Under the pieces are notes generated by a model. The model worked only from the letters and a program-made list of their open reading frames with translations, was not told where the DNA came from and did not search any database. A stretch of DNA of 64,000 bases from Escherichia phage vB_EcoP_PhAPEC7: the sequence record NC_024790.1; one strand, given 5' to 3'. The position numbers were made by a program, and so were the translations under genes. Of the stretch, positions 2,533 to 35,410 are shown one piece after another; position 1 is the first letter of the stretch, and the number at the start of each line of letters is the position of its first letter.

Positions 2533-2764
2533 ATATAAAGTAATTCGTTTTGCAGATAATAAACGTGGCATCGGTGCAGAAGTAGAGAAGAAAACAATCT
2601 TTGGAACCAGTACATGGGTGAAGGTTGCTACACCTGGATATGACGAAGCCTTCGACAAATGGGTTAATAAAGTGACCGGTAAATCTGGGTATGCTGATAT
2701 TTGTATGGCAGAGCTTAATGACTTCTATACCGCTAATCACATTACTAAGGAATATGCAAAATGA
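2525..2764 (+). CDS. Early hypothetical protein (79 aa)
   Basis: GGAGG upstream of ATG; start overlaps previous stop. Confidence 0.5.
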   Translation: MAKYKVIRFADNKRGIGAEVEKKTIFGTSTWVKVATPGYDEAFDKWVNKVTGKSGYADICMAELNDFYTANHITKEYAK

Positions 2765-2982
2765 TGTACTCAAACGATTATGGTATATGCCCAGTCTGTA
2801 AGAAAGGACGTGGAGTTGCCAATCATAAACGTTGTAGTCGTATATTGCAGAAACAACGGAACCAGGAAGAATGGGATAAGTTGTTAAATAATCAGCACAA
2901 AGAAGAGAATCAACAGATGGCTGTTAAGGCATCTACTCAACGTATTCGCCGTATTAACTATATACAAGGATACCAAAAGTGA
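2761..2982 (+). CDS. Early small protein with CxxC...HxxC zinc-ribbon-like motif (73 aa)
   Basis: CPVCKKGRGVANHKRC motif; ATGA start/stop overlap with upstream gene. Confidence 0.45.
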   Translation: MMYSNDYGICPVCKKGRGVANHKRCSRILQKQRNQEEWDKLLNNQHKEENQQMAVKASTQRIRRINYIQGYQK

Positions 2983-3236
2983 TTATTACATTCCCTGTAA
3001 CTAAATCATTTAACTATATGGGACAAACTATTGAAGTCCCATTATGGGTTAAATATGTAGCCTTATTACCTCGTCCTCAGAAGAGTAGTAATGCCTCACT
3101 AATTGGATTTAGTAGAAAGCCTAAGCTAACTGAAAACTGTATTTGGAAGTCTAGTGGTAGACAAGAGGAAATTGGTTTTTGTGATTATGTACCTCAACCA
3201 AATATAGTATACCTAACCCTGGAGAAAGTAGAGTGA
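2979..3236 (+). CDS. Early hypothetical protein (85 aa)
   Basis: Translationally coupled ORF in the operon. Confidence 0.4.
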   Translation: MIITFPVTKSFNYMGQTIEVPLWVKYVALLPRPQKSSNASLIGFSRKPKLTENCIWKSSGRQEEIGFCDYVPQPNIVYLTLEKVE

Positions 3237-3547
3237 ATAACATCGTAGTAGTACATGATAATACATTTACTGACGTAGATAAGATGATGCGTAATATTGA
3301 TTATGTATCTCAGACTAGTAAAGCATTTAATGAAGAGTTCACTATTTACTGTGAACCAGAATCACCACTGGTTCCTGTATTAAAGGAAGCAGGTCTACCC
3401 TTCTCTACAGAGAACTTCCCAGAGGAACCAGAGTATATGATTACATTCGTATATGACTTACATGATGGCTCTCCTGCTAGTGAACTAGCCATGAACCAGT
3501 GGCGTAGCAAACGACCTGTATTCGCTTTTCAGGTACTTAAACCATGA
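3233..3547 (+). CDS. Early hypothetical protein (104 aa)
   Basis: Coupled ORF. Confidence 0.45.
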   Translation: MNNIVVVHDNTFTDVDKMMRNIDYVSQTSKAFNEEFTIYCEPESPLVPVLKEAGLPFSTENFPEEPEYMITFVYDLHDGSPASELAMNQWRSKRPVFAFQVLKP

Positions 3548-3924
3548 AAACTATCCCATTGGGTGATAACACCAATGCTTTGCTGGGTGTATCCGCACGT
3601 CCAATTATCATTGTTAACAAACATCACGGTAAATCCGGTGAATATATTGGACGTGGTTCACCTCTTGGAAATCCATTCGTCATTGGTAAGCATGGAACCA
3701 GAGAGCAAGTAATTGCTAAGTATAGAGTCTGGCTGCAAGAACAGATTGATAAAGGTAATCCAGTTGTACTGGATGAACTTAATCGTCTGGGTAATAAAGC
3801 CATTGACGAGAAAGGTCTGGCCTTACAGTGCTTCTGTTATCCAAAGCCATGTCATGGTGAGGTTATTAAAGAGAAGCTCGTACAGGCTATGTATAATTAC
3901 TTTGTGGAGAATCCAAATGGATAA
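3544..3924 (+). CDS. Conserved phage protein, DUF4326-like (126 aa)
   Basis: GRGSPLGNPF motif recalled as typical of the DUF4326 family; not checked against HMMs. Confidence 0.45.
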   Translation: MKTIPLGDNTNALLGVSARPIIIVNKHHGKSGEYIGRGSPLGNPFVIGKHGTREQVIAKYRVWLQEQIDKGNPVVLDELNRLGNKAIDEKGLALQCFCYPKPCHGEVIKEKLVQAMYNYFVENPNG

Positions 3925-4165
3925 GCCAAAGAACCATTCCAAAGAATGGGATAATCTAGATAATACTAACTTAAAATTATTAGTGGAATCTGATAAGTCT
4001 TTTGTAGAAATATCAAATATTATGCAGAGAACTCTTGCAGCTACTATAACCCAAGCACAAAGGCTAAACCTAATCCATGTACAAGATGTTGGAGGAGAAA
4101 TAAGAAGTAAGATTATTTATAAAATTACTTACTTAGAGTCCATACCATGGAGTACTTTCAAATGA
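3917..4165 (+). CDS. Early hypothetical protein (82 aa; start trimmed from track ORF 3713)
   Basis: ATG at 3917 with GGAGAA upstream; the track ORF overlaps the previous gene in another frame. Confidence 0.4.
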   Translation: MDKPKNHSKEWDNLDNTNLKLLVESDKSFVEISNIMQRTLAATITQAQRLNLIHVQDVGGEIRSKIIYKITYLESIPWSTFK

Positions 4166-4347
4166 ATAAACAATGTAATTGTGGCAAAGGCTATGTATCC
4201 CAATGGGATAACAAGTGTGGTCACTGCCGAACCAAGAAAGAACAGCGTGACCATGAGTATGCTCTCGATTGTGTAACAGAGTGCCAGTGTGAGTCACAGG
4301 CCGATGCACTTATCTTTTATAAAGAAGTAAGGAATCAATGCAAATGA
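4147..4347 (+). CDS. Cys-rich small protein (66 aa), possible zinc-binding
   Basis: CNCGKG...CGHC...CVTECQCE cysteine pattern. Confidence 0.4.
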   Translation: MEYFQMNKQCNCGKGYVSQWDNKCGHCRTKKEQRDHEYALDCVTECQCESQADALIFYKEVRNQCK

Positions 4348-4724
4348 AAGAAATCTTCGTATTCGGTAGTAATTTAGCAGGTCGTCACGGTGCTGGTGCA
4401 GCGAAAGTTGCATATAAGAAACATGGTGCACGTTATGGAATGGGAGTTGGTCACTATGGTTTCAGCTATGCAATCCCAACCAAAGACCAGAACATCAAGA
4501 CCATGAAACTGGATGACATCAAAGTATTCGTAGATGCTTTCATCCTATATGCAGCATCACACCCAGAGTGGGACTTTAAAGTAACACGCATTGGTTGTGG
4601 ATTGGCTGGTTATAAGGATGAAGAAATTGCTCCTATGTTTGCCAATGCTACAGGCAATGTCATGTTTGACGAAGCCTGGAAGCCTATTCTGGGAAATGAT
4701 TATATCTACTGGGGAACCTTCTAA
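4338..4724 (+). CDS. Conserved protein with Gly-rich loop FVFGSNLAGRHGAGAA (128 aa)
   Basis: Rossmann-like Gly-rich motif; family not resolved. Confidence 0.45.
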   Translation: MQMKEIFVFGSNLAGRHGAGAAKVAYKKHGARYGMGVGHYGFSYAIPTKDQNIKTMKLDDIKVFVDAFILYAASHPEWDFKVTRIGCGLAGYKDEEIAPMFANATGNVMFDEAWKPILGNDYIYWGTF

Positions 4725-4984
4725 TGACATATGAAGAACTATGGGCTGCTCAGGTCAGAGCCAGAGCACTCACACGGCATGACATCTATTGTGCATTACA
4801 GAACGAATTAAAGGGACGTACTAAGCTAGGTCACATATCAGGTTTCATTAAAATACCTATGCGTAGTCTAGTATGGCCTTATAAAGAAAAAAGCAATGAA
4901 TTTAGTGGTAATGGTTTATATGTACGTATCAACTACCTTGGCCAAGAGAACAGTATTCGTATTGCCTTTTGGACTAAACGTTAG
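4724..4984 (+). CDS. Early hypothetical protein (86 aa)
   Basis: Coupled ORF. Confidence 0.45.
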   Translation: MTYEELWAAQVRARALTRHDIYCALQNELKGRTKLGHISGFIKIPMRSLVWPYKEKSNEFSGNGLYVRINYLGQENSIRIAFWTKR

Positions 4985-5037
4985 GTAATAGCTGCTCCGC
5001 AGCTTTTGGTTATTAATAACATTTAGGAGAATATGCG

Positions 5038-5856
5038 ATGTACTCATCTATTGAACATCAGAAGCAGCTTGAAGTCCTATTCAATAAAAATCAATTACTG
5101 CCTCGCATGAGGAAGGAATTCGAGGACTCCAAAGAAATTGACTTTAAGGCATTCGCTGCCTATTTAAAAATTGATTATAAGCTGCTCATTGATGCAATGG
5201 TGCAGATTGCCCTACATAAACGTGCTGACATCCAGACTATGATTGGCTCTCTCATGAGTCACTCAGATGATGCTCAGTACATCGCTGACTGTCTATATAA
5301 GATGGCAGAGAATGACTGCTTCAACTATGACCCTACCATCGACAAGTTCGGTGTTATCTACGAGATTAGTGAAGATGTTCAGATGGAACTGGAAGCATTC
5401 CAGTATCCATTACCTATCGTAAGTGCCCCTAATCCTGTCAGAACTAACAAGGATACTGGTTACTACCAGACTAAAGGAAGCATCATCCTCAAGAAGAACC
5501 ATCATGAGATGGATGTCTGCCTTGACCACATCAACCGTATGAACAACCAACGTCTCTGTATTAACTGGGACGTTGCTAACTATGTAAAAGACTCTCGTCC
5601 TAACATGGATAAACCTAAAGAAGGTGAAACCCGTCAGGACTATGAGAAACGTGTTAAAGCCTTTGAAAAGTACAGTCGTACTGCTAAGGAAGTAATGGAG
5701 TTAGTGACTCAGGAAGGTAATAACTTCTCACTGGGTCACAAATATGACAAACGTGGGCGTACTTACGCTCAGGGCTACCACATTAACTATCAGGGAACCA
5801 GCTACAACAAAGCTGTACTGGAGTTCGCTGAGAAGGAGTTAGTAAATGAAGACTAA
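5038..5856 (+). CDS. T7-like RNA polymerase, N-terminal/small subunit (N4 RNAPII gp15-like, 272 aa)
   Basis: Lies directly upstream of the catalytic subunit; sizes 272 + 405 aa match the recalled N4 RNAPII heterodimer (about 269 + 404 aa). Confidence 0.55.
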   Translation: MYSSIEHQKQLEVLFNKNQLLPRMRKEFEDSKEIDFKAFAAYLKIDYKLLIDAMVQIALHKRADIQTMIGSLMSHSDDAQYIADCLYKMAENDCFNYDPTIDKFGVIYEISEDVQMELEAFQYPLPIVSAPNPVRTNKDTGYYQTKGSIILKKNHHEMDVCLDHINRMNNQRLCINWDVANYVKDSRPNMDKPKEGETRQDYEKRVKAFEKYSRTAKEVMELVTQEGNNFSLGHKYDKRGRTYAQGYHINYQGTSYNKAVLEFAEKELVNED

Positions 5857-22836: not shown

Positions 22837-24507
22837 ATGCGTTACATCACCTCTCAGGATACTGGTAAGTATCCTATTGCTATCCTCGGTCATCAAATCC
22901 GAAGGGAGGAGATGATTAAAACCTACCTGCTGCCTTATGACCTAAGCATGGAAGATTTCATCTTCCTTGAACTTCATTCTGCCCCCGGCAAGAAGAAAAC
23001 TCCTGCAAGGGAGATTAAGGAGTTCATTCAGCAGGAACTGCAACAAGTACTGGATGATGCAGAGACTCAGTACATTATCTGTACCGATTCTGATTACTTT
23101 AAAATACTGACTAAAGAAGCTAAAGCAGAGGCTAACCTCGGCTATGTTTGTGACTCAGTATGGGGTAAGCAGAAGGTTATCTATACACCTAGCTACAGAC
23201 AGGTCTTTTATGATCCACCTGTAGTGAAAGCTAAGATTGCTCAGGGTATGGATGCATTACTTAACCACATTCGTGGGCAGTATGCTGAACCAGGACAGGG
23301 AATCATTGAGTTTGAAGCCTATCCGGATACACCAGAAAAGATTAAAGCCTGGCTAGACCAGTTGCTTGAGATGAATAAGCCTCTGGCTATAGACATCGAA
23401 TCATTCGGTTTAAAGCACTATAACGCTGGTATAGGGACGATTACGTTCTGTTGGAGTAAGACACAAGGTATAGCCTTTAATGTGGACTACGAGCCAATTA
23501 AGGGGGCTACTGAAGCACCCTATGGGCGTATCAACAGGAATGATGTTGTTCGTAACCTGTTACGTGAGTTCTTCATTAAGTACACTCAACGGCAGATGTA
23601 TCACAACATTAGCTATGACGTGTACGTGCTTATCTATCAGTTATTCATGGATAACCTGATTGATACGGAAGGCTTACTGCACGGCATGGAAATCATGCTA
23701 CGTAATTGGGACTGTACTAAGTTAATTACCTATCTGGCTACTAACAGCTGTGCCGGTAATCACCTTAGTCTGAAAGAACAGGCTCAGGAATATGCTGGTA
23801 ACTATGCTCAGGATGACATTAAAGACATTCGTCTTATTCCTAATGAGCAACTGTTACGCTACAACCTCATTGATGGTTTGTGTACGTGGTACACCTACGA
23901 GAAGCACTGGGATACTCTCATTGCTGATGACCAATTAGATGTTTACAACAATATCTTTAAACCAGCCTGTGAAGACATTATTCAGATGCAGTTAACCGGT
24001 ATGCCCATGAATATGGAAACCGTTAACCAAGTAGCTGAGGAGATGGAAACTGACAGGAACCAGGCTCTGAAAACTATTCGTGAGTCTAAGCTCATGAAGA
24101 ACTTCACCCTGATGCTTCGTCAGGAATGGGTAGACGATAAGAATGCTAAGCTAAAGAAGAAGCAAGTAACACTGGCTGATTGTGACATAGTGTTTAATCC
24201 TAATTCAGGGCCACAATTACAGAAACTGTTATTTGATTACATTGGCTTACCGGTTCTTGGTCTTACTAAGAGCAAGCAACCTGCTACTGACGGAGACACT
24301 ATTAAAGCACTGCGTACACATACGCAGAGTGAAGATGTTAAGGAACTGCTCAATGCACTTATCGACTATAAACTCGTGGATAAGATTATCACTAGTTTTA
24401 TACCAGCTTTCAGGAATGCCCAGCCGGGGCCGGATGGCTGGCACTACCTATTCGGCAACCTCAATCTTGGAGGCACAGTCTCCGGTAGGCTATCGGCTTC
24501 AGAGCCT
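22837..24507 (+). CDS. DNA polymerase I-like (family A), exon 1
   Basis: Ends in ...TVSGRLSASEP, matching Pol I TGRLSSxDP immediately before PNLQNIP; continues in-frame at 25214 after intron removal. Confidence 0.75.
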
Positions 24508-25213
24508 AAAATAAATTGGGCTATTTAAACCATGTGAATTCAGGGGAAACCCAGACCGGGCAATCCTGAGCCAAATCAACCATACCTGCCTTAGGAGGCA
24601 CATGATGGATATCAAGAATCTGTACGAGAATACTGACCTATCTCAAGCAGAAATATCAAAGCGTTTGGGTATTAATTACAAAAAAGTCTCTAAATATATT
24701 AGGGAGAACTACAGTAAAGAATACCGCCAAAGCAGAAATGCAAAGTCTTACCGACGCTCCAAGCTGGGGAAAAATAACCCCATGCTCGGTAAATTCGGCA
24801 AAGACCATCACAACTACAAAGGTTTAGTATCCGATAGTAAGGGCTACTTAATGGTACTTAAACCCGATTGGTATACTGCACGCAAAGGTAGCAAACATGT
24901 TTTTGCTCACCATGTAGTGGTATGTGAGGCACTTAATATCAGTGAAATACCTAAGGGCTGGTGTGTGCACCATTGTGATGAAAATCCATACAACAACGAC
25001 TTTGATAATCTTGTATTGCTAAGTGTTCCTGACCACGCTCGGTTACACTCAGCATTGAAAGGTGCAACGACTATCTCGAAAGAGAGTACACTCATGTGGG
25101 TGGAAGCGCATGGCACGCCTTACTATCTGGCGTGATGATATAGTCTGCTCTGCATAGGAATATGCAGCAGTCGAAAGACGGGCATGGATTAACGACCCAT
25201 GCTGAACAACAGG
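24508..25213 (+). mobile_element. Group I self-splicing intron (706 nt) carrying an HNH homing endonuclease gene
   Basis: Splits the conserved PNLQ(N/T)IP codons; 5' exon ends in U pairing with G of guide GGGCT (24518-24522) to give a 5-bp P1; intron ends in G; P/Q-like core 24535-24574; R-like GACTA 25069-25073 and S-like GATATAGTC 25137-25145. Confidence 0.7.
24602..25135 (+). CDS. HNH homing endonuclease (intron-encoded, 177 aa)
   Basis: HNH motif HHCDENPYNNDFDNLVLLSVPDHARLH; strong AGGAGG RBS; sits inside the intron. Confidence 0.8.
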   Translation: MMDIKNLYENTDLSQAEISKRLGINYKKVSKYIRENYSKEYRQSRNAKSYRRSKLGKNNPMLGKFGKDHHNYKGLVSDSKGYLMVLKPDWYTARKGSKHVFAHHVVVCEALNISEIPKGWCVHHCDENPYNNDFDNLVLLSVPDHARLHSALKGATTISKESTLMWVEAHGTPYYLA

Positions 25214-26122
25214 AATCTACAAACAATTCCATCCGGTTCTAAATATGCCAAGAAGATTAAGAAATGCTTCGAAGCCCCACCTGGCTGGGTATTTTGCGGT
25301 TTGGACTTCGCCTCGCTGGAAGACAGAATATCTGCATTGACTACTAAAGACCCCCAGAAACTTAAGGTATATACCGATGGTTACGATGGTCATAGTCTTC
25401 GTGCGTATGCTTACTTTGGTGAGCAGATGCCAGACATTGTAGACACAGTTGAGTCAATTAATTCTATTCAGACGAAGTATAAGCACCTGCGTAGTGATTC
25501 TAAAGCCCCAACCTTCTTGCTTACCTATGGTGGTACGTATATGGGCTTGATGAAAAACTGTGGCTTCTCAGAAGAGAAAGCTAAAACAACAGAGAAACGT
25601 TATCACGATCTCTATGTAGTTAGTGATATGTGGGTTCAGGCTAAGCTAGATGAAGCTGCCAAGACTGGTTATGTAACTGCTGCATTTGGTTTGAGAGTGC
25701 GTACTCCTTTACTGGCTCAGGTATTACGTGGGACATGTAAGACTCCATATGAAGCAGAAGCTGAAGGTAGAACTGCTGGCAATGCTTTAGGGCAAAGCTG
25801 GTGTCTATTGAATAACCGTGCTGGTTCAGAGTTTATGCGTAAAGTCAGAGCCAGTGAGTTCAGGTTAGATATACGCCCTAGTATTCACATTCATGATGCT
25901 CAATACTTCATGATTCGTGACAACATGGATACCTTGCAGTACACGAACAAGCATTTGGTTGAAGCCGTTAACTGGCAAGACCATCCTGATATTGCTCATC
26001 CAGAAGTTGGTTTGGGTGGGGAACTATCCTTGTTTTACCCAACGTGGGCTAACGAGATTGAGATTCCAAATCACGCTACCCCAGAAGAAGTTAATCAAAT
26101 AATTCAAAAGGCATTCGCATGA
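25214..26122 (+). CDS. DNA polymerase I-like (family A), exon 2
   Basis: Starts NLQTIP; motif A DFASLEDRI, motif B RSDSKAPTFLLTYGG, motif C IHIHDA. Confidence 0.75.
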   Translation, partial: NLQTIPSGSKYAKKIKKCFEAPPGWVFCGLDFASLEDRISALTTKDPQKLKVYTDGYDGHSLRAYAYFGEQMPDIVDTVESINSIQTKYKHLRSDSKAPTFLLTYGGTYMGLMKNCGFSEEKAKTTEKRYHDLYVVSDMWVQAKLDEAAKTGYVTAAFGLRVRTPLLAQVLRGTCKTPYEAEAEGRTAGNALGQSWCLLNNRAGSEFMRKVRASEFRLDIRPSIHIHDAQYFMIRDNMDTLQYTNKHLVEAVNWQDHPDIAHPEVGLGGELSLFYPTWANEIEIPNHATPEEVNQIIQKAFA

Positions 26123-26424
26123 CTAAAAGTACTAAAGAAACCGCCGTCAAAAAATATCATTGGATGGTGGCAGCACAGGTAATCTTCCAGCTTCCTAAAG
26201 CTGATGATGGTTCCCTGCTTACCATGAATACAATGCTGCTCACTGACGAACCTCATGTGACTTATAAAGATTTGGCCCGTGTTAATCACTCTCTGAAGAT
26301 TAGTCTGGACCAGCGTTTCGACACCTCAGTTGACTTGAAAGACATTGTTTATCTATCCATCAATAACCTGGGTCTGATGTCTGAACCAGAGTTCCAAGCA
26401 AACATGATTCCCAAGGGGGAATAA
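26119..26424 (+). CDS. Hypothetical protein (101 aa)
   Basis: Coupled ORF (ATGA overlap). Confidence 0.4.
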   Translation: MTKSTKETAVKKYHWMVAAQVIFQLPKADDGSLLTMNTMLLTDEPHVTYKDLARVNHSLKISLDQRFDTSVDLKDIVYLSINNLGLMSEPEFQANMIPKGE

Positions 26425-26891: not shown

Positions 26892-27871
26892 TGAAGATAA
26901 CCAACAACCATGATGTCTCGCTGGCCCTGGCTGTATGGCTATTACATGACGAATATGATTACGTAGACAATCCTAAGTACCTGTCTGCTACTACATTGCT
27001 TAAGCCTATTAAGCAAATCGTCATGAAGCATCGTGTAGATTTTAGTGACCAGTCAATTGATGTTATGGATTTCGTCTCCACATCAATGGGTACTGGCTTA
27101 CATGACTCTATTGAGAAAGCCTGGAAGCTAGGTCATAAGACTGCATTGAAGAAGCTAGGTTATCCTCAGCGAGTAATTGATGCAGTAGTCATTAACCCAA
27201 CCAAAGCAGACTTTGCTGCTAACCCTGACCTTATCCCAATCTACATTGAACAGCGTGGAACCAAGGTAGTTAAGGGTTGGACCATCGGTGGTAAGTTTGA
27301 CATCGTAACGGAAGGTCTGTTGCAAGACTTCAAGTCTACCTCAACCTATTCTTGGGTTGCTGGTTCCCGTGATGATGAACACAAGATGCAAGGCAGCTTG
27401 TACCGTTGGATTCACAACGACATCATTACTGAGGATGTAATTCGTATTAACTACATCTTCACCGACTTCATGAAACACATGGCTAATAGCAATCCAAACT
27501 ATCCTGCTAATCGTATTATGCATAAGGATATTCCGTTGCTGTCTGCTGAGAAGACTGAACGTTGGGTGGAAGAGAAGATTCACTTCATCGAAAAGTACTG
27601 GGATGCACCTGAAGAGGAAATCCCTGAATGTACTGATGAGGAGTTGTGGCGAACAGAGCCACAGTTCAAATACTTCTCTGATGCTTCTAAGGTAGATGTA
27701 CCTGGAGCCAGGAGTACCAAAAACTTTGACGATATGGCATCTGCCCGTATCTTCATGGCTGAAAAAGGTGGCAAGGGTGCTATCAAGGTCGTGGAGGGGC
27801 AGGTTAAACGTTGTTTATATTGCCCTGTCGCGTCCATTTGCAAACAAAGAGAGAGATATTTTCCATCATGA
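26891..27871 (+). CDS. PD-(D/E)XK nuclease, Cas4/RecB-like exonuclease (326 aa)
   Basis: D...QDFK nuclease-like motif and C-terminal CxxC...C cluster (CLYCPVASIC). Confidence 0.5.
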   Translation: MKITNNHDVSLALAVWLLHDEYDYVDNPKYLSATTLLKPIKQIVMKHRVDFSDQSIDVMDFVSTSMGTGLHDSIEKAWKLGHKTALKKLGYPQRVIDAVVINPTKADFAANPDLIPIYIEQRGTKVVKGWTIGGKFDIVTEGLLQDFKSTSTYSWVAGSRDDEHKMQGSLYRWIHNDIITEDVIRINYIFTDFMKHMANSNPNYPANRIMHKDIPLLSAEKTERWVEEKIHFIEKYWDAPEEEIPECTDEELWRTEPQFKYFSDASKVDVPGARSTKNFDDMASARIFMAEKGGKGAIKVVEGQVKRCLYCPVASICKQRERYFPS

Positions 27872-30021
27872 GTATTGACCTTACCGGAGTAGTGCACCAT
27901 CCAGCGATTGAAGAAATCGTAGATGTGCTCTGCAATAAAACCCAGAATAACGACCGGGGATTCTTCCGTGTCGAAGTGGCCTACTTCTTGGCTAAAATGG
28001 CATCCTGCATGGGTGCAACCATCGTAACTAAAGACCGTGGTGACCTGCCAGTAAACATCTACGCTATGGCGTTGGCTACATCTGGTTTCGGTAAAGGTCA
28101 CTCGGTAAATATCATTGAAGACGGGTTCATGACTGGCTTCCGTAAGCGTTTTATGGAAGACACCATGCCCGTCATTGCAAATGACCGTCTATGGAAGATT
28201 GCTAACGAACGTGCTGCTCGTCAAGGCACAGACCAGAATGATGAGTTCGATAAAGTTGAAGCAGAGTATAAACGTGCTGGGGCATTCCCATTCACATTCG
28301 ACTCTGGTACAGCACCTGCTGTAAAACAGCTTCGTCACAAACTACTTATGGCTGGTTGTGGTGCTATTAACTTACAGATTGATGAGATTGGTTCCAACCT
28401 CATTGCCAACGTTGAAGTGCTTAACCTGTTCCTTGAGTTGTATGACCAGGGGAAAGTAAAACAGAAGTTAACCAAGAACACTGCTGAAAGTGTTCGTGGT
28501 GAAGAACTGGATGGTAAGACTCCCGCTAACCTGCTGCTGTTCGGTACTCCGAGTAAGCTGCTGGATGGTGGTCAGACTGAAGACCAGTTCTATGACTTCC
28601 TCGATACAGGGTATGCACGTCGTTGTCTGTTTGCCATTGGGCACTTAGACAAGCGAGCACATGCAACGCTGACTCCGGAAGAAATCTACCGTAACCTGAT
28701 TAAGCAGGATAACGTTCAGTCTCTTGGTAAGTGGGCTAACCACTTCCATAGTCTGGCTGACCCAAACCTGTTTGGCTTTAAGATGATTGTGGAAGATGCA
28801 GTGGGTATTGCTCTGATTACTTACAAAATTGATTGTGAGAAAAAAGCAGAAGCTATGGCTGACCACGAAGAAATTCGTAAGGCTGAAATCTCTCATCGTT
28901 ACTTCAAAGCTCTTAAACTGGCAGGTGCACTGGCGTTTGTTGATCAGAGTTCATTCATTGAGATGTCTCACCTTAAACAAGCAATCCTGCTAGTAGAAGA
29001 ATCCGGGGCAGCATTCCAAGGTATTCTCAATCGTGAGAAAGCCTATGTGAAGCTGGCTAAGTACATTGCATCCGTAGGTAAAGAAGTGACTCATGCTGAC
29101 TTGCTGGAGTCGTTGCCGTTCTATAAGAGTGGCAATGCAGCTCGCAATGAGATGATGACTCTTGCTACAGCATGGGGTTACAAACAGCACATCATTATTA
29201 AGAAGACATTCAATGAAGGTATTGAGTTCTTCCGTGGTGAGACTCTGAAAGAGACTAACACCAATGAGATGCTGGTGGCATATAGTGATAGCTTTGCTTA
29301 TGACTATGTTGGTGAACGTGTACCGTTTGACCAGCTACATGTATTAACCCAAGCTCACGGTATGCACTGGGTGAACCATCACATGAAGAATGGGCATCGT
29401 TCTGAAGAGAACGTTATCCCAGGATTTAACATGATTGTTATTGACTGTGATGGTGGAGTACCACTGCATACGTGCCATGAGCTGATGAAGGAATATAAGT
29501 TCATGACCTATACCACTAAGCGTCATACCGACGAAGAGAACCGCTTCCGTCTGATTATTCCAATGAACTATGAGTTACACCTCGATACCGAGGAATACAA
29601 AGAGTTCATGAATAACGTTATGGCTTGGCTACCATTCGAAACGGATGAGTCTGCTAACCAACGAGCCAAGAAGTGGATGTCCTGTGAGACTGGTTCCTAT
29701 CATTACAACCTTGATGCGAATCTGTTGGATGTACGTGACTTTATTCCTCGTACCAGTAAGAACGAGCAGTTCCAGAACCAGATGAAGGAAGTTCAGTCGT
29801 TGGACAATCTGGAGCGTTGGTTCGCTGGTCGTATTGCCTCCGGTAATCGTAATAATCAAATGATTAAGTACGCACTGGCATTAGTAGACAGTGGTTGGGA
29901 CTTTGCTCAAGTACAGCAAGCCGTCTACTCATTCAATAAGAAACTGGCTAATCCATTACCAGATGATGAATTGAATGCAACTGTAATGGTCACCGTGGCT
30001 AAACGCTTCGCTGGCAAGTAA
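27868..30021 (+). CDS. Putative DNA primase / replication protein (717 aa; start trimmed from 27811)
   Basis: C-terminal VIDCDGG DxD-like motif reminiscent of primase-polymerase; position matches the N4 primase; ATGA overlap with upstream gene. Confidence 0.4.
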   Translation: MSIDLTGVVHHPAIEEIVDVLCNKTQNNDRGFFRVEVAYFLAKMASCMGATIVTKDRGDLPVNIYAMALATSGFGKGHSVNIIEDGFMTGFRKRFMEDTMPVIANDRLWKIANERAARQGTDQNDEFDKVEAEYKRAGAFPFTFDSGTAPAVKQLRHKLLMAGCGAINLQIDEIGSNLIANVEVLNLFLELYDQGKVKQKLTKNTAESVRGEELDGKTPANLLLFGTPSKLLDGGQTEDQFYDFLDTGYARRCLFAIGHLDKRAHATLTPEEIYRNLIKQDNVQSLGKWANHFHSLADPNLFGFKMIVEDAVGIALITYKIDCEKKAEAMADHEEIRKAEISHRYFKALKLAGALAFVDQSSFIEMSHLKQAILLVEESGAAFQGILNREKAYVKLAKYIASVGKEVTHADLLESLPFYKSGNAARNEMMTLATAWGYKQHIIIKKTFNEGIEFFRGETLKETNTNEMLVAYSDSFAYDYVGERVPFDQLHVLTQAHGMHWVNHHMKNGHRSEENVIPGFNMIVIDCDGGVPLHTCHELMKEYKFMTYTTKRHTDEENRFRLIIPMNYELHLDTEEYKEFMNNVMAWLPFETDESANQRAKKWMSCETGSYHYNLDANLLDVRDFIPRTSKNEQFQNQMKEVQSLDNLERWFAGRIASGNRNNQMIKYALALVDSGWDFAQVQQAVYSFNKKLANPLPDDELNATVMVTVAKRFAGK

Positions 30022-30077: not shown

Positions 30078-30410
30078 ATGTCCGAAGAAATCTCCAACGA
30101 TATGAACACTCAGCTAATCCTGATTGCAGGATTCTCAGCTAGTGGTAAATCAGCATCACTGCGTAATATCCGGAACCAGGAACGCTGGCTGTATCTGAAT
30201 ACAGAAGCGGGTAAACGTCTACCTTTCCGTAATAAGTTCAACACCTACAATATCGAAGACCCATACCAGATTTGGGAAGCATTCGATGTTGCATCTCCTG
30301 GTGGTGAAATGGCAGACGATGTTGATGGCATCATTATCGACTCTGCTACCTTCATGATGGACATGCTGGAATCCCAGTATGTATTACCATCTGCTAATAC
30401 CCAAAAGGCT
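30078..30410 (+). CDS. RecA-like/Sak4-like ATPase, exon 1
   Basis: Walker A IAGFSASGKSA, Walker B GIIIDSATF; the TAA at 30411 is read as the first intron codon. Confidence 0.5.
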
Positions 30411-31182
30411 TAACTACTAAGGCCCGTTAGTCAGTAATGATTAATGATAACTGATTGAATTCAGGGAAACCCCTAACGTAAAGACGAGGGCAATCCTGAG
30501 CCAAGACTTAATCTTTCTCCGGTTTTTATTAACGGAGTTACAAACATGAGTAAGAAAAGATTCGGTAATGAATTACATCCTCTGTATTACACATGGTTAA
30601 CCATTAAACAGAGATGTGACAACCCTAAGCACGCTAGTTATAAAAACTATGGGGCTAGGGGGATAACTAGAGCAGAAGAGTTCTCTGACTTCAAAGTGTT
30701 TGCTGCCTATCTAGAATCATTAGATGGTTACGCAGACAGGGAGAGACTGGGTCTTACTTTAGATAGAATAGGTGGTTCACTTGGCTATGTGCCAGGAAAT
30801 CTGAGATAGGCAACTAGAACAACTCAGACCATTAATTCCAGAAAAAGAAGAACCAGTAAAGCTACCTACTTAGGGATAGGTTTAAACACCACTAAGAAAA
30901 AATGGTCAGCAAGAATCTGCAACGGTAATGAAAGAATCTTTGTAGGTAATTTTGATTCCGAGATTGAAGCTCTGAAAGCTAGAAATGCCTACATTATTGA
31001 GCATGGTTTACCTCATGCCATTCAAAAGATTAAGTAAGGTGCAACGACTATCCAGTAATGGAGTAGGGCAGAAGCTAATGCTGCTCGAAGCGGTCAGCAT
31101 CCTATCGTAATTAACGAGGATGAAGATATAGTCTGGACTGCATGGAAACATGCAGATGCAGGTAATGCTGCTGGGAGTGTAG
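30411..31182 (+). mobile_element. Group I intron (about 772 nt) carrying a disrupted HNH-AP2-type homing endonuclease ORF; 3' boundary approximate
   Basis: P/Q core 30453-30504 near-identical to intron 1; 4-bp P1 between exon GGCU (30407-30410) and guide GGCC (30421-30424) at the same 10-nt spacing; R-like 31038-31052, S-like 31126-31134; 3' splice site placed after G 31182 by frame and a 3-bp P10 (alternative about 31209). Confidence 0.6.
30546..31037 (+). pseudogene. HNH-AP2 family homing endonuclease-like ORF with in-frame TAG at 30807-30809
   Basis: N-terminal YYTWLTIKQRCDNPKHASYKNYGARGI..., then DRIGG...GNLR-stop-ATRT where the family has NxRWAT; the same frame continues into an AP2-like domain (KKWSARICNGNERIFVGNFDSEIEALKARNAY) to TAA 31035-31037. 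Confidence 0.55.
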
Positions 31183-31626
31183 TTGCGTACACTCTTGAAC
31201 GTATCGTGGGGAGACTTTGCACAGTTCTTTAAAGTACTGCTGCAACAGAAAGTCGTTAAGTTTGGTAAGCCGGTAATCATTACTGCCCATGCCAAAGATG
31301 AACTCGACGAAGCTGCTGGTGTAATGAAAACATTCATCCCGGTCAAGGGTTCACTGAAGAACAATGGCCTTGAGGCTTACTTTTCTACAGTGGTTTACGC
31401 AGAACGTGTAGACATTAAAGAACTGGAGAAGTACGGCAACAAGATGCTTGATATTACGGAAGAAGAACGTGACTTAGGCTATAAGCACGTATTCCAGACA
31501 CGTCCAACCAAGAAGTCTGTTGGTAAACGTCTTCGCTCACCAATGGGTATGTTCGATAAGTCTCAGACTTACATTGATAATGATGCCCAAAAACTCTTAG
31601 ACCATCTGGCTGAATACTACGCTTAA
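31183..31626 (+). CDS. RecA-like/Sak4-like ATPase, exon 2 (start approximate)
   Basis: In-frame continuation after intron removal; the track start at 31183 is a TTG. Confidence 0.45.
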   Translation: MRTLLNVSWGDFAQFFKVLLQQKVVKFGKPVIITAHAKDELDEAAGVMKTFIPVKGSLKNNGLEAYFSTVVYAERVDIKELEKYGNKMLDITEEERDLGYKHVFQTRPTKKSVGKRLRSPMGMFDKSQTYIDNDAQKLLDHLAEYYA

Positions 31627-33879: not shown

Positions 33880-35410
33880 TCGTGAAGGGTTCTGTCAGAA
33901 TCCTTTGAGATAGGAACTCCTATCATAACCTTTCTTAACTTAATCTTTGCCGTATGGCACTGACGCTAGGGGTGGCCCCCCATCCGTCAGACAGACTATT
34001 TTAAGAATGGGTTATCTCAGAAAATGTAAAGCAACATTCGGGTTAATCAATGGCCTCTCCCTATAGGGGCCATTTCTGAATCTTAGGCTATATCCCAAAG
34101 GTTAGTATCTTTGGGATAAGGCTTCAGATCCCTTATCAAACTAACTGCTCAATGTTGAGTATATTAATTAACCCAGCCCACTAAGGGGGCGGGAGTTTAA
34201 TGCCGGTAAGCATAAGCCCATCCGACTACAACATCGAAGTGTTAGGTCTTACATGCAATATAGGGTATAAAGGGAGGATTCGTCCCCTCCCTCCTATTAT
34301 GAACTATCGGAGAGTGCATTAGTTGATTAGCTGTGGAAGGTAGGCCGATGTCCACAAGTGTGGCCCAGAGCTAGTGTACTCCCCGATAGTTTTCGTAGCG
34401 ATTATGCGGTTTTTTAGAAACGAACCAATAACATAAATGCAAACGAAGAAGCGTATCTGATGGTCGCCTAACAGCGTAACCTCAGTCAGGAGTGAGTCGT
34501 CCTGATTATCAAACGACCGTGGAGTTCTCCCGTCCATGTATTAGAAACGGGGGACCAACTACCAGTTGCACGAGATGGCTTGATATGTTCAAGTTTGGAC
34601 TAAGTGTGACACCGCTAGATTGGAGGGCTGCTGCGGTAAGCTATAGACTCCAACCGGAGGTTCGAATCCTTCACTGGTAACCAATTCAAAGTAGCACTGG
34701 CTCATATTAGTGGAACTCGAACCCATTGAGCAGACGAGATTAGCTAACTCTCAGTGCTACCCCTAATTGGAAGAATTAAGACGGGTCTGGTGAAGTAGAT
34801 GGGGTTCAATTCCCCCCGGTGGAGTAATCCACTAGCGTGCTTGGTGCACGTATAAGACTTAGTACTGGTGGTTCGATTCCATCCCCCGTTACCTGAAGTC
34901 GCCAGGTACTTATGGCAAACGGGTAGTAACGAACTAGTCATTCGTCAAACGCCCACCCAATTATGAGTCAGCAAGAACGCCTTCACTTAAACTTAAACAA
35001 AAAAGCTTAACGCAATGATTATGTAGGGGTATGTAAGGATTGCGAAGAAGGAGCCAGTTAGAGCCTGGCATGACTCACCTATTATGTCCGCTTAGCTTAG
35101 ACTGGGAAAGCAACCGACTAATAATCGGAAGGTCACTGGTTCAAATCCAGTAGTGGACACCCATTCAGCAGTAACATAGTCCTGATTGCATAGCACTCTA
35201 AAGACAACACTGGTAAGACAGTCCAGTGGCTGCTAATGTATTGTTATTCCCCTCGACGGGAATTTCGCTGGAGAATAGGAACTACTTAAATCCTAGCCTG
35301 AGTATTGCAATATGTGACTATCAATCACGAGAGACGGGACGACCAGACCCCTGAAGCTGGCAATATTGCATATTCATACAAGCCTCCCAGCTATGGGTAA
35401 ATAGTACTAA
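33880..35410 (+). other. Non-coding structured island with tRNA-like elements
   Basis: No RBS-supported ORF; perfect hairpins (for example a 10-bp stem at 34091-34118) and T-arm-like motifs at 34659-34669, 34801-34815, 34870-34880 and 35138-35148. Confidence 0.45.
35086..35159 (+). tRNA. Candidate tRNA (74 nt; anticodon loop CTAATAA, anticodon AAT as parsed)
   Basis: Acceptor GTCCGCT/AGTGGAC (one G-U), D-stem GCTT/AAGC, anticodon stem CCGA/TCGG, T-arm ACTGG-TTCAAAT-CCAGT; CCA not encoded; A34 is unusual. Confidence 0.5.

Follow-up and report, generated by a model that had tools for sequence, protein, structure and literature searches.

What interrupts the DNA polymerase gene of Escherichia phage vB_EcoP_PhAPEC7, and is the interruption removed from the transcript, from the protein or not at all? 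In the stretch of DNA analyzed here (64,000 nucleotides of sequence record NC_024790.1, hereafter "the window"), the polymerase reading frame (22837-24528) proceeds as far as ...GRLSASEP, then gains the residues KINWAI and reaches a stop codon, and the residues NLQTIP are to be found from 25214 onwards within a separate downstream ORF (25199-26122). A preliminary description, made from the letters alone, had taken the intervening 24508-25213 for a group I intron with an HNH homing endonuclease, a reading which the present analysis supports and also refines, in that the tail of the endonuclease ORF appears to supply the ribozyme strands P6a' to P8. Judging by its sequence, the insert is very probably a mobile, self-splicing group IA2 intron in a family A polymerase gene, carrying an HNH homing endonuclease gene in its P6a loop. 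The element is already known, having been annotated in phage PhAPEC5, and its family has been characterized experimentally through the intron of the cyanophage Pf-WMP3 (PMC3428280); obtained here are its exact boundaries, the ribozyme architecture along with its covariation, the homology of the endonuclease, the purifying selection acting upon it and its sporadic distribution.

Polymerase Gene and Boundaries of the Insert

The phage is a member of Gamaleyavirus (N4-like, Schitoviridae), and its 3,286-nt polymerase region shows 98.4% identity to that of Escherichia phage vB_EcoP_PhAPEC5 and 92-97% identity to those of many G7C-like phages. The region is organized as follows:

22837-24507, + strand: exon 1 of the family A DNA polymerase (N4 gp39 homologue), recognized by its ORF, its Pfam DNA_pol_A match and collinearity with G7C gp39
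24508-25213, + strand: predicted group I intron, subgroup IA2, 706 nt, recognized by the indel relative to G7C, RF00028, covariation and identity to PhAPEC5
25214-26122, + strand: exon 2 of the DNA polymerase, first residues NLQTIPSGSKY..., recognized by Pfam DNA_pol_A and collinearity with G7C

The DNA_pol_A match of exon 1 extends up to profile position 126 and that of exon 2 commences at position 127, so that the two meet at the junction and the exons represent neighbouring parts of one domain. The intron-less gp39 of G7C comprises 2580 nt and its counterpart in the window 3286 nt, which is exactly 706 nt more, and excision of 24508-25213 yields an open frame of 860 codons for an 859-aa polymerase with 99.3% protein identity to that of G7C; the junction reads SASEP/NLQTIP in both the spliced window polymerase and G7C gp39. 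The earlier claim that a PNLQNIP-type motif is split here and restored by excising precisely these positions was thus borne out by comparison with the polymerase genes of intron-less relatives. The insertion separates the Pro codon from the Asn codon in the conserved SxxP/NLQxIP block, the G7C-type intron-less polymerase target around the site being ...TCAGAGCCAAATCTACAAAC....

Since the insert breaks a polymerase motif of high conservation and, like many inteins, codes for a homing endonuclease, an intein or some other protein-level element was also considered as a candidate. The length of the insert, however, is no multiple of three (706 mod 3 = 1), the frame of exon 1 hits a stop after 7 codons of it, and the HNH ORF is furnished with an RBS and a start codon of its own. 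The frame and the stop codons within the insert rule this candidate out, and it was left with no probability whatsoever.

Predicted Splice Sites

By DNA comparison alone, the boundary could be shifted by 0, +1 or +2 nt with equivalent outcomes, as A/AA is repeated at both ends of the insert. Of these three possible cuts, only 24507/25213 places a U ahead of the 5' splice site (U24507, the last base of exon 1) and ends the intron in a G (G25213). The same procedure, when checked on the Pf-WMP3 intron, yielded 672 nt, which is its published length. In P1, the exon sequence AGCCU (24503-07) would pair with the internal guide GGGCU (24518-22), leaving a U24507·G24518 wobble at the cleavage site; the helix is short, comprising 5 bp, or 7 bp if an intron A-U extension is counted, and P10 is only 3 bp long (AAU 25214-16 with AUU 24515-17). 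These three elements (the U/G pair in P1, the terminal G and the 3-bp P10) had all been named in the preliminary description, and all can be read in the sequence; the Rfam alignment puts P1 at 24503-24522 and the splice site exactly at GCCU/AAAA.

A U ahead of the 5' splice site paired to a G, together with a terminal G, is a feature of 15/15 introns compared, including those of the window and of Pf-WMP3. Across the same 15 introns the guide sequence varies along with the exon (AGCCU with GGGCU, AACCUU with GAGGUU, AACCCU with GGGGUU, GUCCU with GGGGU, and CCAGCGUU with GGCGCUGG). At the junction, Pro is encoded by CCT in each of the three gamaleyavirus sequences with the intron (window, PhAPEC5 and Moonfish) and by CCA in G7C and SP5M, both of which are devoid of this polymerase intron, a pattern fitting the need for U at position -1.

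Ribozyme Core

The helices were worked out by hand and then mapped onto the window coordinates. The predicted core is split by the endonuclease ORF into two halves:

24530-24579, + strand: 5' half of the core, based on the Rfam match (27.3 bits), covariation in P3, P4 and P5, and the fold
25055-25213, + strand: 3' half of the ribozyme, from P6a' to the terminal G25213, based on the Rfam match (31.5 bits), compensatory changes and the fold

Its predicted elements, among them the P3/P7 pseudoknot and all on the + strand, are:

P1: 24503-07 with 24518-22
P3: 24530-36 with 25107-13
J3/4: AAU, between the 5' strand of P3 and P4
P4: 24540-45 with 24564-69
P5: 24550-52 with 24558-60
P6: 24570-72 with 25061-63
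P6a: 24576-79 with 25055-58
P7: 25069-73 with 25141-45
P7.1: 25074-77 with 25082-85
GUA linker, P7.1 to P7.2: 25086-88
P7.2: 25089-93 with 25098-102
P8: 25114-19 with 25129-34
P9: 25150-56 with 25161-67
P9.1: 25170-72 with 25177-79
P9.2: 25181-87 with 25197-203

There is no P2, and P7.1 and P7.2 are linked by GUA, a combination which is the IA2 signature of the Pf-WMP3 and phiI/W31 introns (PMC3428280). In an alignment of 14 homologous introns from which the P6a interior had been taken out, 98.5% of the helix cells form standard pairs and 28 of the 56 pairs exhibit a compensatory change, as opposed to 29-42% paired cells and 4-10 compensatory pairs in slid controls, for which the partners had been moved by 1-3 columns; the covariation score was reached in none of the 500 shuffles. 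Compensatory changes are seen in P3, P5, P7.1, P7.2, P8, P9, P9.1 and P9.2, while P7 and the greater part of P4 do not vary and are uninformative in this respect. The minimum-energy fold of the ORF-deleted RNA (z = -3.88) recovered P1, P3, P4, P5, P6, P6a, P7.1, P7.2, P8, P9 and P9.2.

At the gathering threshold, the Rfam group I intron model (RF00028) is absent from the whole window, the sole Rfam match there being a tRNA. When searched against the contiguous intron region, the model does match at 38.0 bits (E 5.7e-8), which is below the 50-bit gathering threshold, and in this alignment its 5' part is forced into ORF sequence. When each end was matched on its own, model positions 1-126 (P1 to P6) were found in the 5' segment, 24498-24600, with 27.3 bits and model positions 112-253 (P6' to P9) in the 3' segment, 25040-25167, with 31.5 bits; the E-values of the three RF00028 matches (5.7e-8, 1e-6 and 1.1e-5) are far beyond chance. 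The P/Q-like and R/S-like core elements glimpsed in the preliminary description have thereby gained the support of two half-matches and of covariation across 14 introns. The sub-threshold score of the window intron is attributable to the ORF insertion of about 475 nt in P6a, which cannot be spanned by the model: ORF-less homologues sharing the same core exceed the gathering score (Acinetobacter 1137_KEN_02, 84.7 bits; Xanthomonas Valrath, 69.7 bits; Xanthomonas MK21, 61.9 bits; Pseudoalteromonas pYD6-A, 88 bits), and the Pf-WMP3 intron, which splices both in vivo and in vitro (PMC3428280), attains 31.9 bits with its ORF in place.

Might the RNA nevertheless remain intact, with the polymerase being made as two polypeptides (exon 1 extended by KINWAI, and a product initiated at ATG 25199) that assemble non-covalently? 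PhAPEC5 and Moonfish are indeed annotated with two polymerase CDSs, and there is an in-frame ATG 15 nt upstream of exon 2. The genus may, moreover, tolerate split polymerases, given that the polymerase inserts of SP5M and ST4, which lie at other positions and contain an endonuclease-type ORF (annotated as HNH in SP5M), gave no group I signal. A complete ribozyme with covariation flanks the ORF of the window insert, however, and ATG 25199 is without a Shine-Dalgarno sequence, lies within the P9.2 stem and is unconserved in the homologues; the break would also hit the most conserved motif of the enzyme, and the homologous intron that occupies this site in Pf-WMP3 is known to splice. A polymerase of two separate chains is, consequently, considered very improbable, and excision of a group I intron is by far the preferred reading.

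Homologues and Their Distribution

Among 110 polymerase-matching records, the window intron was found in only two other phages, PhAPEC5 (two records) and Shigella phage Moonfish, the copy of the latter being 96% identical; such a sporadic distribution among phages with matching polymerases fits what would be expected of a homing element. Polymerase introns of other phage groups show 66-76% nucleotide identity over the aligned 70-98% of the 706 nt, and the phages bearing them, mostly Autographiviridae, include those of Acinetobacter, Pseudomonas, Providencia, Dickeya, Pectobacterium, Klebsiella and Xanthomonas; a related polymerase intron is also carried by a schitovirus, Shigella phage B2. The 3' core additionally matches T4-type nrdB introns, Staphylococcus phage sequences and other phage introns.

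The Pro/Asn site is occupied in 10 of the 15 introns (the copies of the window and of Pf-WMP3 counted); numbered after E. coli Pol I, this is site 674, which the introns of SPO1, SP82 and Bastille occupy as well (PMC3428280). The remaining five (phiL7, phiB1_1, PS3, BF25/12 and Valrath) reside at PNL/Q, two codons downstream (site 676). The copy of Xanthomonas MK21, which is ORF-less, interrupts the polymerase at an unrelated position, and some of the homologous introns (239-279 nt) have lost the ORF.

A second group I intron is present in the window at 30411-31206, which is not annotated as an intron in four related phage records carrying it, and whose endonuclease gene has an in-frame stop.

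The HNH Endonuclease Gene

The ORF within the intron and the stem-loop preceding it are located as follows:

24580-24608, + strand: stem-loop around the Shine-Dalgarno sequence and start codon of the HNH gene, predicted in 11/11 homologues
24602-25135, + strand: HNH homing endonuclease gene, 177 aa, recognized by its ORF, Pfam HNH_3, PHROG 7545 and homology to I-PfoP3I

The HNH motif noticed in the preliminary description corresponds to a Pfam HNH_3 match over residues 104-147 (30.8 bits versus a cut-off of 24.8, E 2.3e-7), placing the motif in the C-terminal part of the protein, with an HTH-like region in the N-terminal one; the PHROG 7545 match spans the full length (E 1e-57). The protein is 45% identical over 159 aa (E 3e-44) to I-PfoP3I, the endonuclease of the Pf-WMP3 intron, which has been purified and is a Mg2+-dependent nicking enzyme whose nick falls on the coding strand, 4 nt upstream of the point of insertion, and which recognizes positions -3 to +11 (PMC3428280). 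The second ATG (24605) is probably the start codon corresponding to those of the homologues. Searched by sequence against the PDB (E up to 1), the HNH protein returned nothing meaningful, the best match (E 0.029) being to the unrelated Cas12a3, and the active-site geometry proposed for the protein is taken from the conservation of the motif.

The preliminary description had credited this ORF with a strong RBS. The Shine-Dalgarno sequence itself is certainly there (AGGAGG, 24593-98); its accessibility is another matter, for it lies in a predicted two-tier hairpin, the inner stem of which pairs 24587-91 with 24596-600 and the outer one CCAU (24580-83) with AUGG (24605-08). This hairpin is predicted in all 11 ORF-containing homologues, Pf-WMP3 included, and the inner-stem variants, as read by eye rather than formally counted, keep the pairing (UGCCU with AGGCA, UACCU with AGGUA, CGCCU with AGGCG, CACCU with AGGUG). 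According to this structural model, the RBS is probably masked in the folded RNA and expression of the gene kept low. A scan of 24300-25400 for sigma-70 promoters and intrinsic terminators revealed none above the shuffled expectation and none on the + strand; N4-type promoters aside, which lie outside the coverage of such a scan, nothing thus points to the endonuclease gene having a promoter of its own.

At its other end, the ORF runs beyond the P6a loop through P6a', P6', P7, P7.1, P7.2 and P3' into P8 (stop codon at 25133-35), so that its final ~80 nt (~26 codons) double as ribozyme core, an overlap also known for Pf-WMP3 (PMC3428280). A ribosome translating this tail would be expected to unfold the core, which would make translation and splicing of one and the same molecule mutually exclusive. 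Compared with the Moonfish copy, the HNH gene differs by 21 synonymous and 6 non-synonymous codon changes, and the ribozyme segments flanking the ORF are almost invariant; the synonymous excess and the near-invariant flanks taken together argue that protein and RNA alike are under selection.

Could the endonuclease gene, then, be a non-functional or domesticated passenger of a ribozyme that still splices but no longer homes? Its RBS and AUG are buried in a hairpin, there is no homologue at the PDB level against which the active site could be checked, and the in-frame stop in the endonuclease gene of the second intron indicates that such genes decay in this lineage. The ORF, however, is full length (177 aa versus 161 aa for I-PfoP3I), its HH...NN...H residues align with those of the active I-PfoP3I, and the codon differences from Moonfish are those of a gene under constraint; the Pf-WMP3 intron, for its part, has the same sequestering hairpin and yet encodes an active enzyme (PMC3428280). 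A passenger gene is, all in all, regarded as unlikely, though appreciably less so than a polymerase of two chains, and an intron whose endonuclease is still functional is the preferred reading.

Proposed Mechanism and the Question of Recent Homing

From the predicted structure and by analogy with characterized homologues, we infer the catalysis, nick position and regulatory coupling of the window intron to be as follows. The polymerase pre-mRNA would fold into P1 to P9.2, whereupon exogenous guanosine would attack after U24507, held in P1 by its wobble with G24518; the freed 3'-OH would then attack after the terminal G25213, the exons being held in line by P10, and GAGCCU would be joined to AAUCUA, giving the message for the 859-aa polymerase. 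Synthesis of the endonuclease would be low, as its RBS and AUG are in a stem-loop and the 3' end of its gene is inside ribozyme strands. The enzyme, as suggested by I-PfoP3I, would nick those polymerase alleles of co-infecting relatives that lack the intron, a few nt from the insertion site, and in the course of repair by recombination the intron would be copied into them (homing).

Did such an event take place in the recent past of this phage? Up to 24468, exon 1 is 96.9% identical to PhAPEC5, which is no closer than to intron-less relatives, whereas the following 24469-26207 (1,739 nt, including the last 39 nt of exon 1, the whole intron and exon 2 in full) contains a single mismatch versus PhAPEC5, a block that looks like a co-conversion tract beginning 39 nt upstream of the insertion. 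Near-identical blocks of similar size do, however, occur elsewhere (e.g., 2674-5166, with one mismatch) in the parts of both genomes compared. With comparable blocks elsewhere, the block was rejected as proof of recent homing, being compatible with ordinary mosaicism, and a very recent acquisition of the intron by homing from a PhAPEC5-like donor is, on these sequence comparisons, a tentative and rather doubtful proposition.

Comparison with Described Introns

The closest described counterpart is the one already deposited for PhAPEC5 (GenBank KF192075; PhAPEC5_40/41/42), in which an intron 99.9% identical over 706 nt occupies the same site and holds the same HNH gene. Exon 1 of the window is just 96.9% identical to that of PhAPEC5, indicating that the two phages are different isolates. 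The PhAPEC5 record annotates "DNAP split by an intron of 672bp" and a "putative HNH endonuclease inducing intron mobility", giving 672 bp and two polymerase CDSs with no join, whereas the excised segment found here is 706 nt. A literature search (PhAPEC5/Gamaleyavirus) found no paper on a gamaleyavirus intron.

The intron of Pf-WMP3 (Kong et al. 2012, PMC3428280) is inserted at the same Pro/Asn point as that of the window and shares with it the IA2 subgroup, the absence of P2, the GUA-linked P7.1/P7.2 and an ORF reaching from P6a into the 3' core. The two differ in their phages (a T7-like cyanophage versus an N4-like coliphage), in length (672 nt in Pf-WMP3 versus 706 nt), in where the ORF ends (P7.2 in Pf-WMP3, P8 in the window) and in their exon targets (CCT/AACATCCAACA against CCA/AATCTACAAAC). 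The HNH-bearing introns of Acinetobacter Friunavirus, Pseudomonas phiB1_1, Providencia PS3, Dickeya BF25/12, Pectobacterium PPWS1 and Xanthomonas phiL7 have the ribozyme core and ORF position of the window intron, several of them being at the same Pro/Asn site; in those at PNL/Q (e.g., phiL7), the guide sequence differs from that of the window accordingly. The introns of SPO1, SP82 and Bastille, with their endonucleases I-HmuI, I-HmuII and I-BasI, are likewise of subgroup IA2, encode nicking HNH enzymes and occupy the same polymerase position (PMC3428280), a likeness to the window intron that is drawn from their description; in the PDB search (E up to 1), no I-HmuI chain was matched by the HNH protein of the window.

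Implications

As far as annotation is concerned, the polymerase of this phage should be represented by a single joined CDS (22837-24507 plus 25214-26122) rather than by two fragments. The Rfam group I model, when applied at its gathering threshold, misses ORF-bearing phage introns, even the validated one of Pf-WMP3, and introns of this kind are probably under-annotated. For the biology of these phages, the element offers nothing new in principle, being one more mobile intron aimed at the most conserved motif of family A polymerases. Should the 1,739-nt block truly be a co-conversion tract, however, it would record, as it happens in nature, asymmetric homing set off by a nick among N4-like phages, and the intron family would, if the present reading is true, have crossed between Schitoviridae, Autographiviridae and cyanophages, with its guides matched to two adjacent target sites.

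A second group I intron, in the ATPase gene

Besides the polymerase intron, the window contains a second group I intron, which splits the gp44/Sak4-like ATPase gene and carries an endonuclease ORF of its own:

30078-30410 and 31207-31626, exons of the gp44/Sak4-like ATPase gene
30411-31206, group I intron (796 nt)
30546-31038, HNH/AP2-like endonuclease ORF inside the intron

The intron is immediately preceded by T30410 and ends in G31206, and the spliced product (250 aa) is identical at 249/250 positions to PhAPEC5_48, the gene of which is uninterrupted in the sister phage PhAPEC5. The endonuclease ORF is probably decaying, as judged from an in-frame TAG at 30807-09. Copies of the insert that are 97-98.6% identical to that of the window are also found in SP5M, PW8 and Bas96, the records of which have it without an intron annotation.

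Target sites and surroundings of the polymerase intron

A comparison of records L007, L009, L010, L012, L013 and L005 shows that the polymerase intron family uses two target sites, P|NLQ and PNL|Q, separated by two codons; the guide sequence fits the respective target in each case, and an additional copy is found elsewhere in the gene:

Xanthomonas phage MK21 (L007) 1488-1766, ORF-less intron copy at an unrelated polymerase site

The two matched target sites and the copy at an unrelated one indicate ectopic transposition with an accompanying change of the guide sequence.

Within 24469-26207, which encompasses 39 nt of exon 1, the intron, the entire exon 2 and 85 nt further, the window differs from PhAPEC5 by one mismatch, whereas the sequence on either side is about 3% divergent. 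This block may be a co-conversion tract left by homing, but similarly long blocks of identity to PhAPEC5 are also present elsewhere in the window (e.g., 2674-5166).

Two other gamaleyaviruses have polymerase inserts that differ from the window's intron, although they reside in the same gene:

SP5M (L003) about 3330-4031, insert of about 700 nt, following nt 1829 of the G7C polymerase gene
ST4 (L004) about 3234-4082, insert of about 850 nt, following nt 1733 of the G7C polymerase gene

Both contain an endonuclease-type ORF (annotated as HNH in SP5M only), and with the cut-off relaxed to E 0.01 a group I signal was still absent from both. Neither insertion is precise, 6-7 nt being replaced, and both polymerase fragments bear short novel extensions. 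The inserts look like cases of true "genes in pieces" or of a splicing system that has escaped recognition.

Neighbouring HNH genes and tRNA

PhAPEC5 has a free-standing HNH endonuclease gene, PhAPEC5_46, between gp42 and the primase gene, where the window has none (about 27868-27874); a second such gene, gp41.1, lies between gp41 and gp42 in the intron-less relative G7C (L002 4924-5421), and its counterpart is missing from both the window and PhAPEC5. Free-standing HNH genes are gained and lost in this part of the genome. The window's sole tRNA gene has an annotated counterpart in PhAPEC5:

35085-35163, tRNA-Ile, anticodon AAT (ARAGORN; Rfam 62.4 bits)

Detection of ORF-containing introns

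The Rfam group I intron model, RF00028, fails at its gathering score (50 bits) to detect ORF-containing phage group I introns, including that at 24508-25213; the ATPase-gene intron scores 49.5 bits in its 3' part and 30.9 bits in its 5' part, and even the experimentally validated intron of cyanophage Pf-WMP3 (L022 10280-10951) is missed, at only 31.9 bits. Under-annotation of ORF-containing phage group I introns is, thus, probably widespread.
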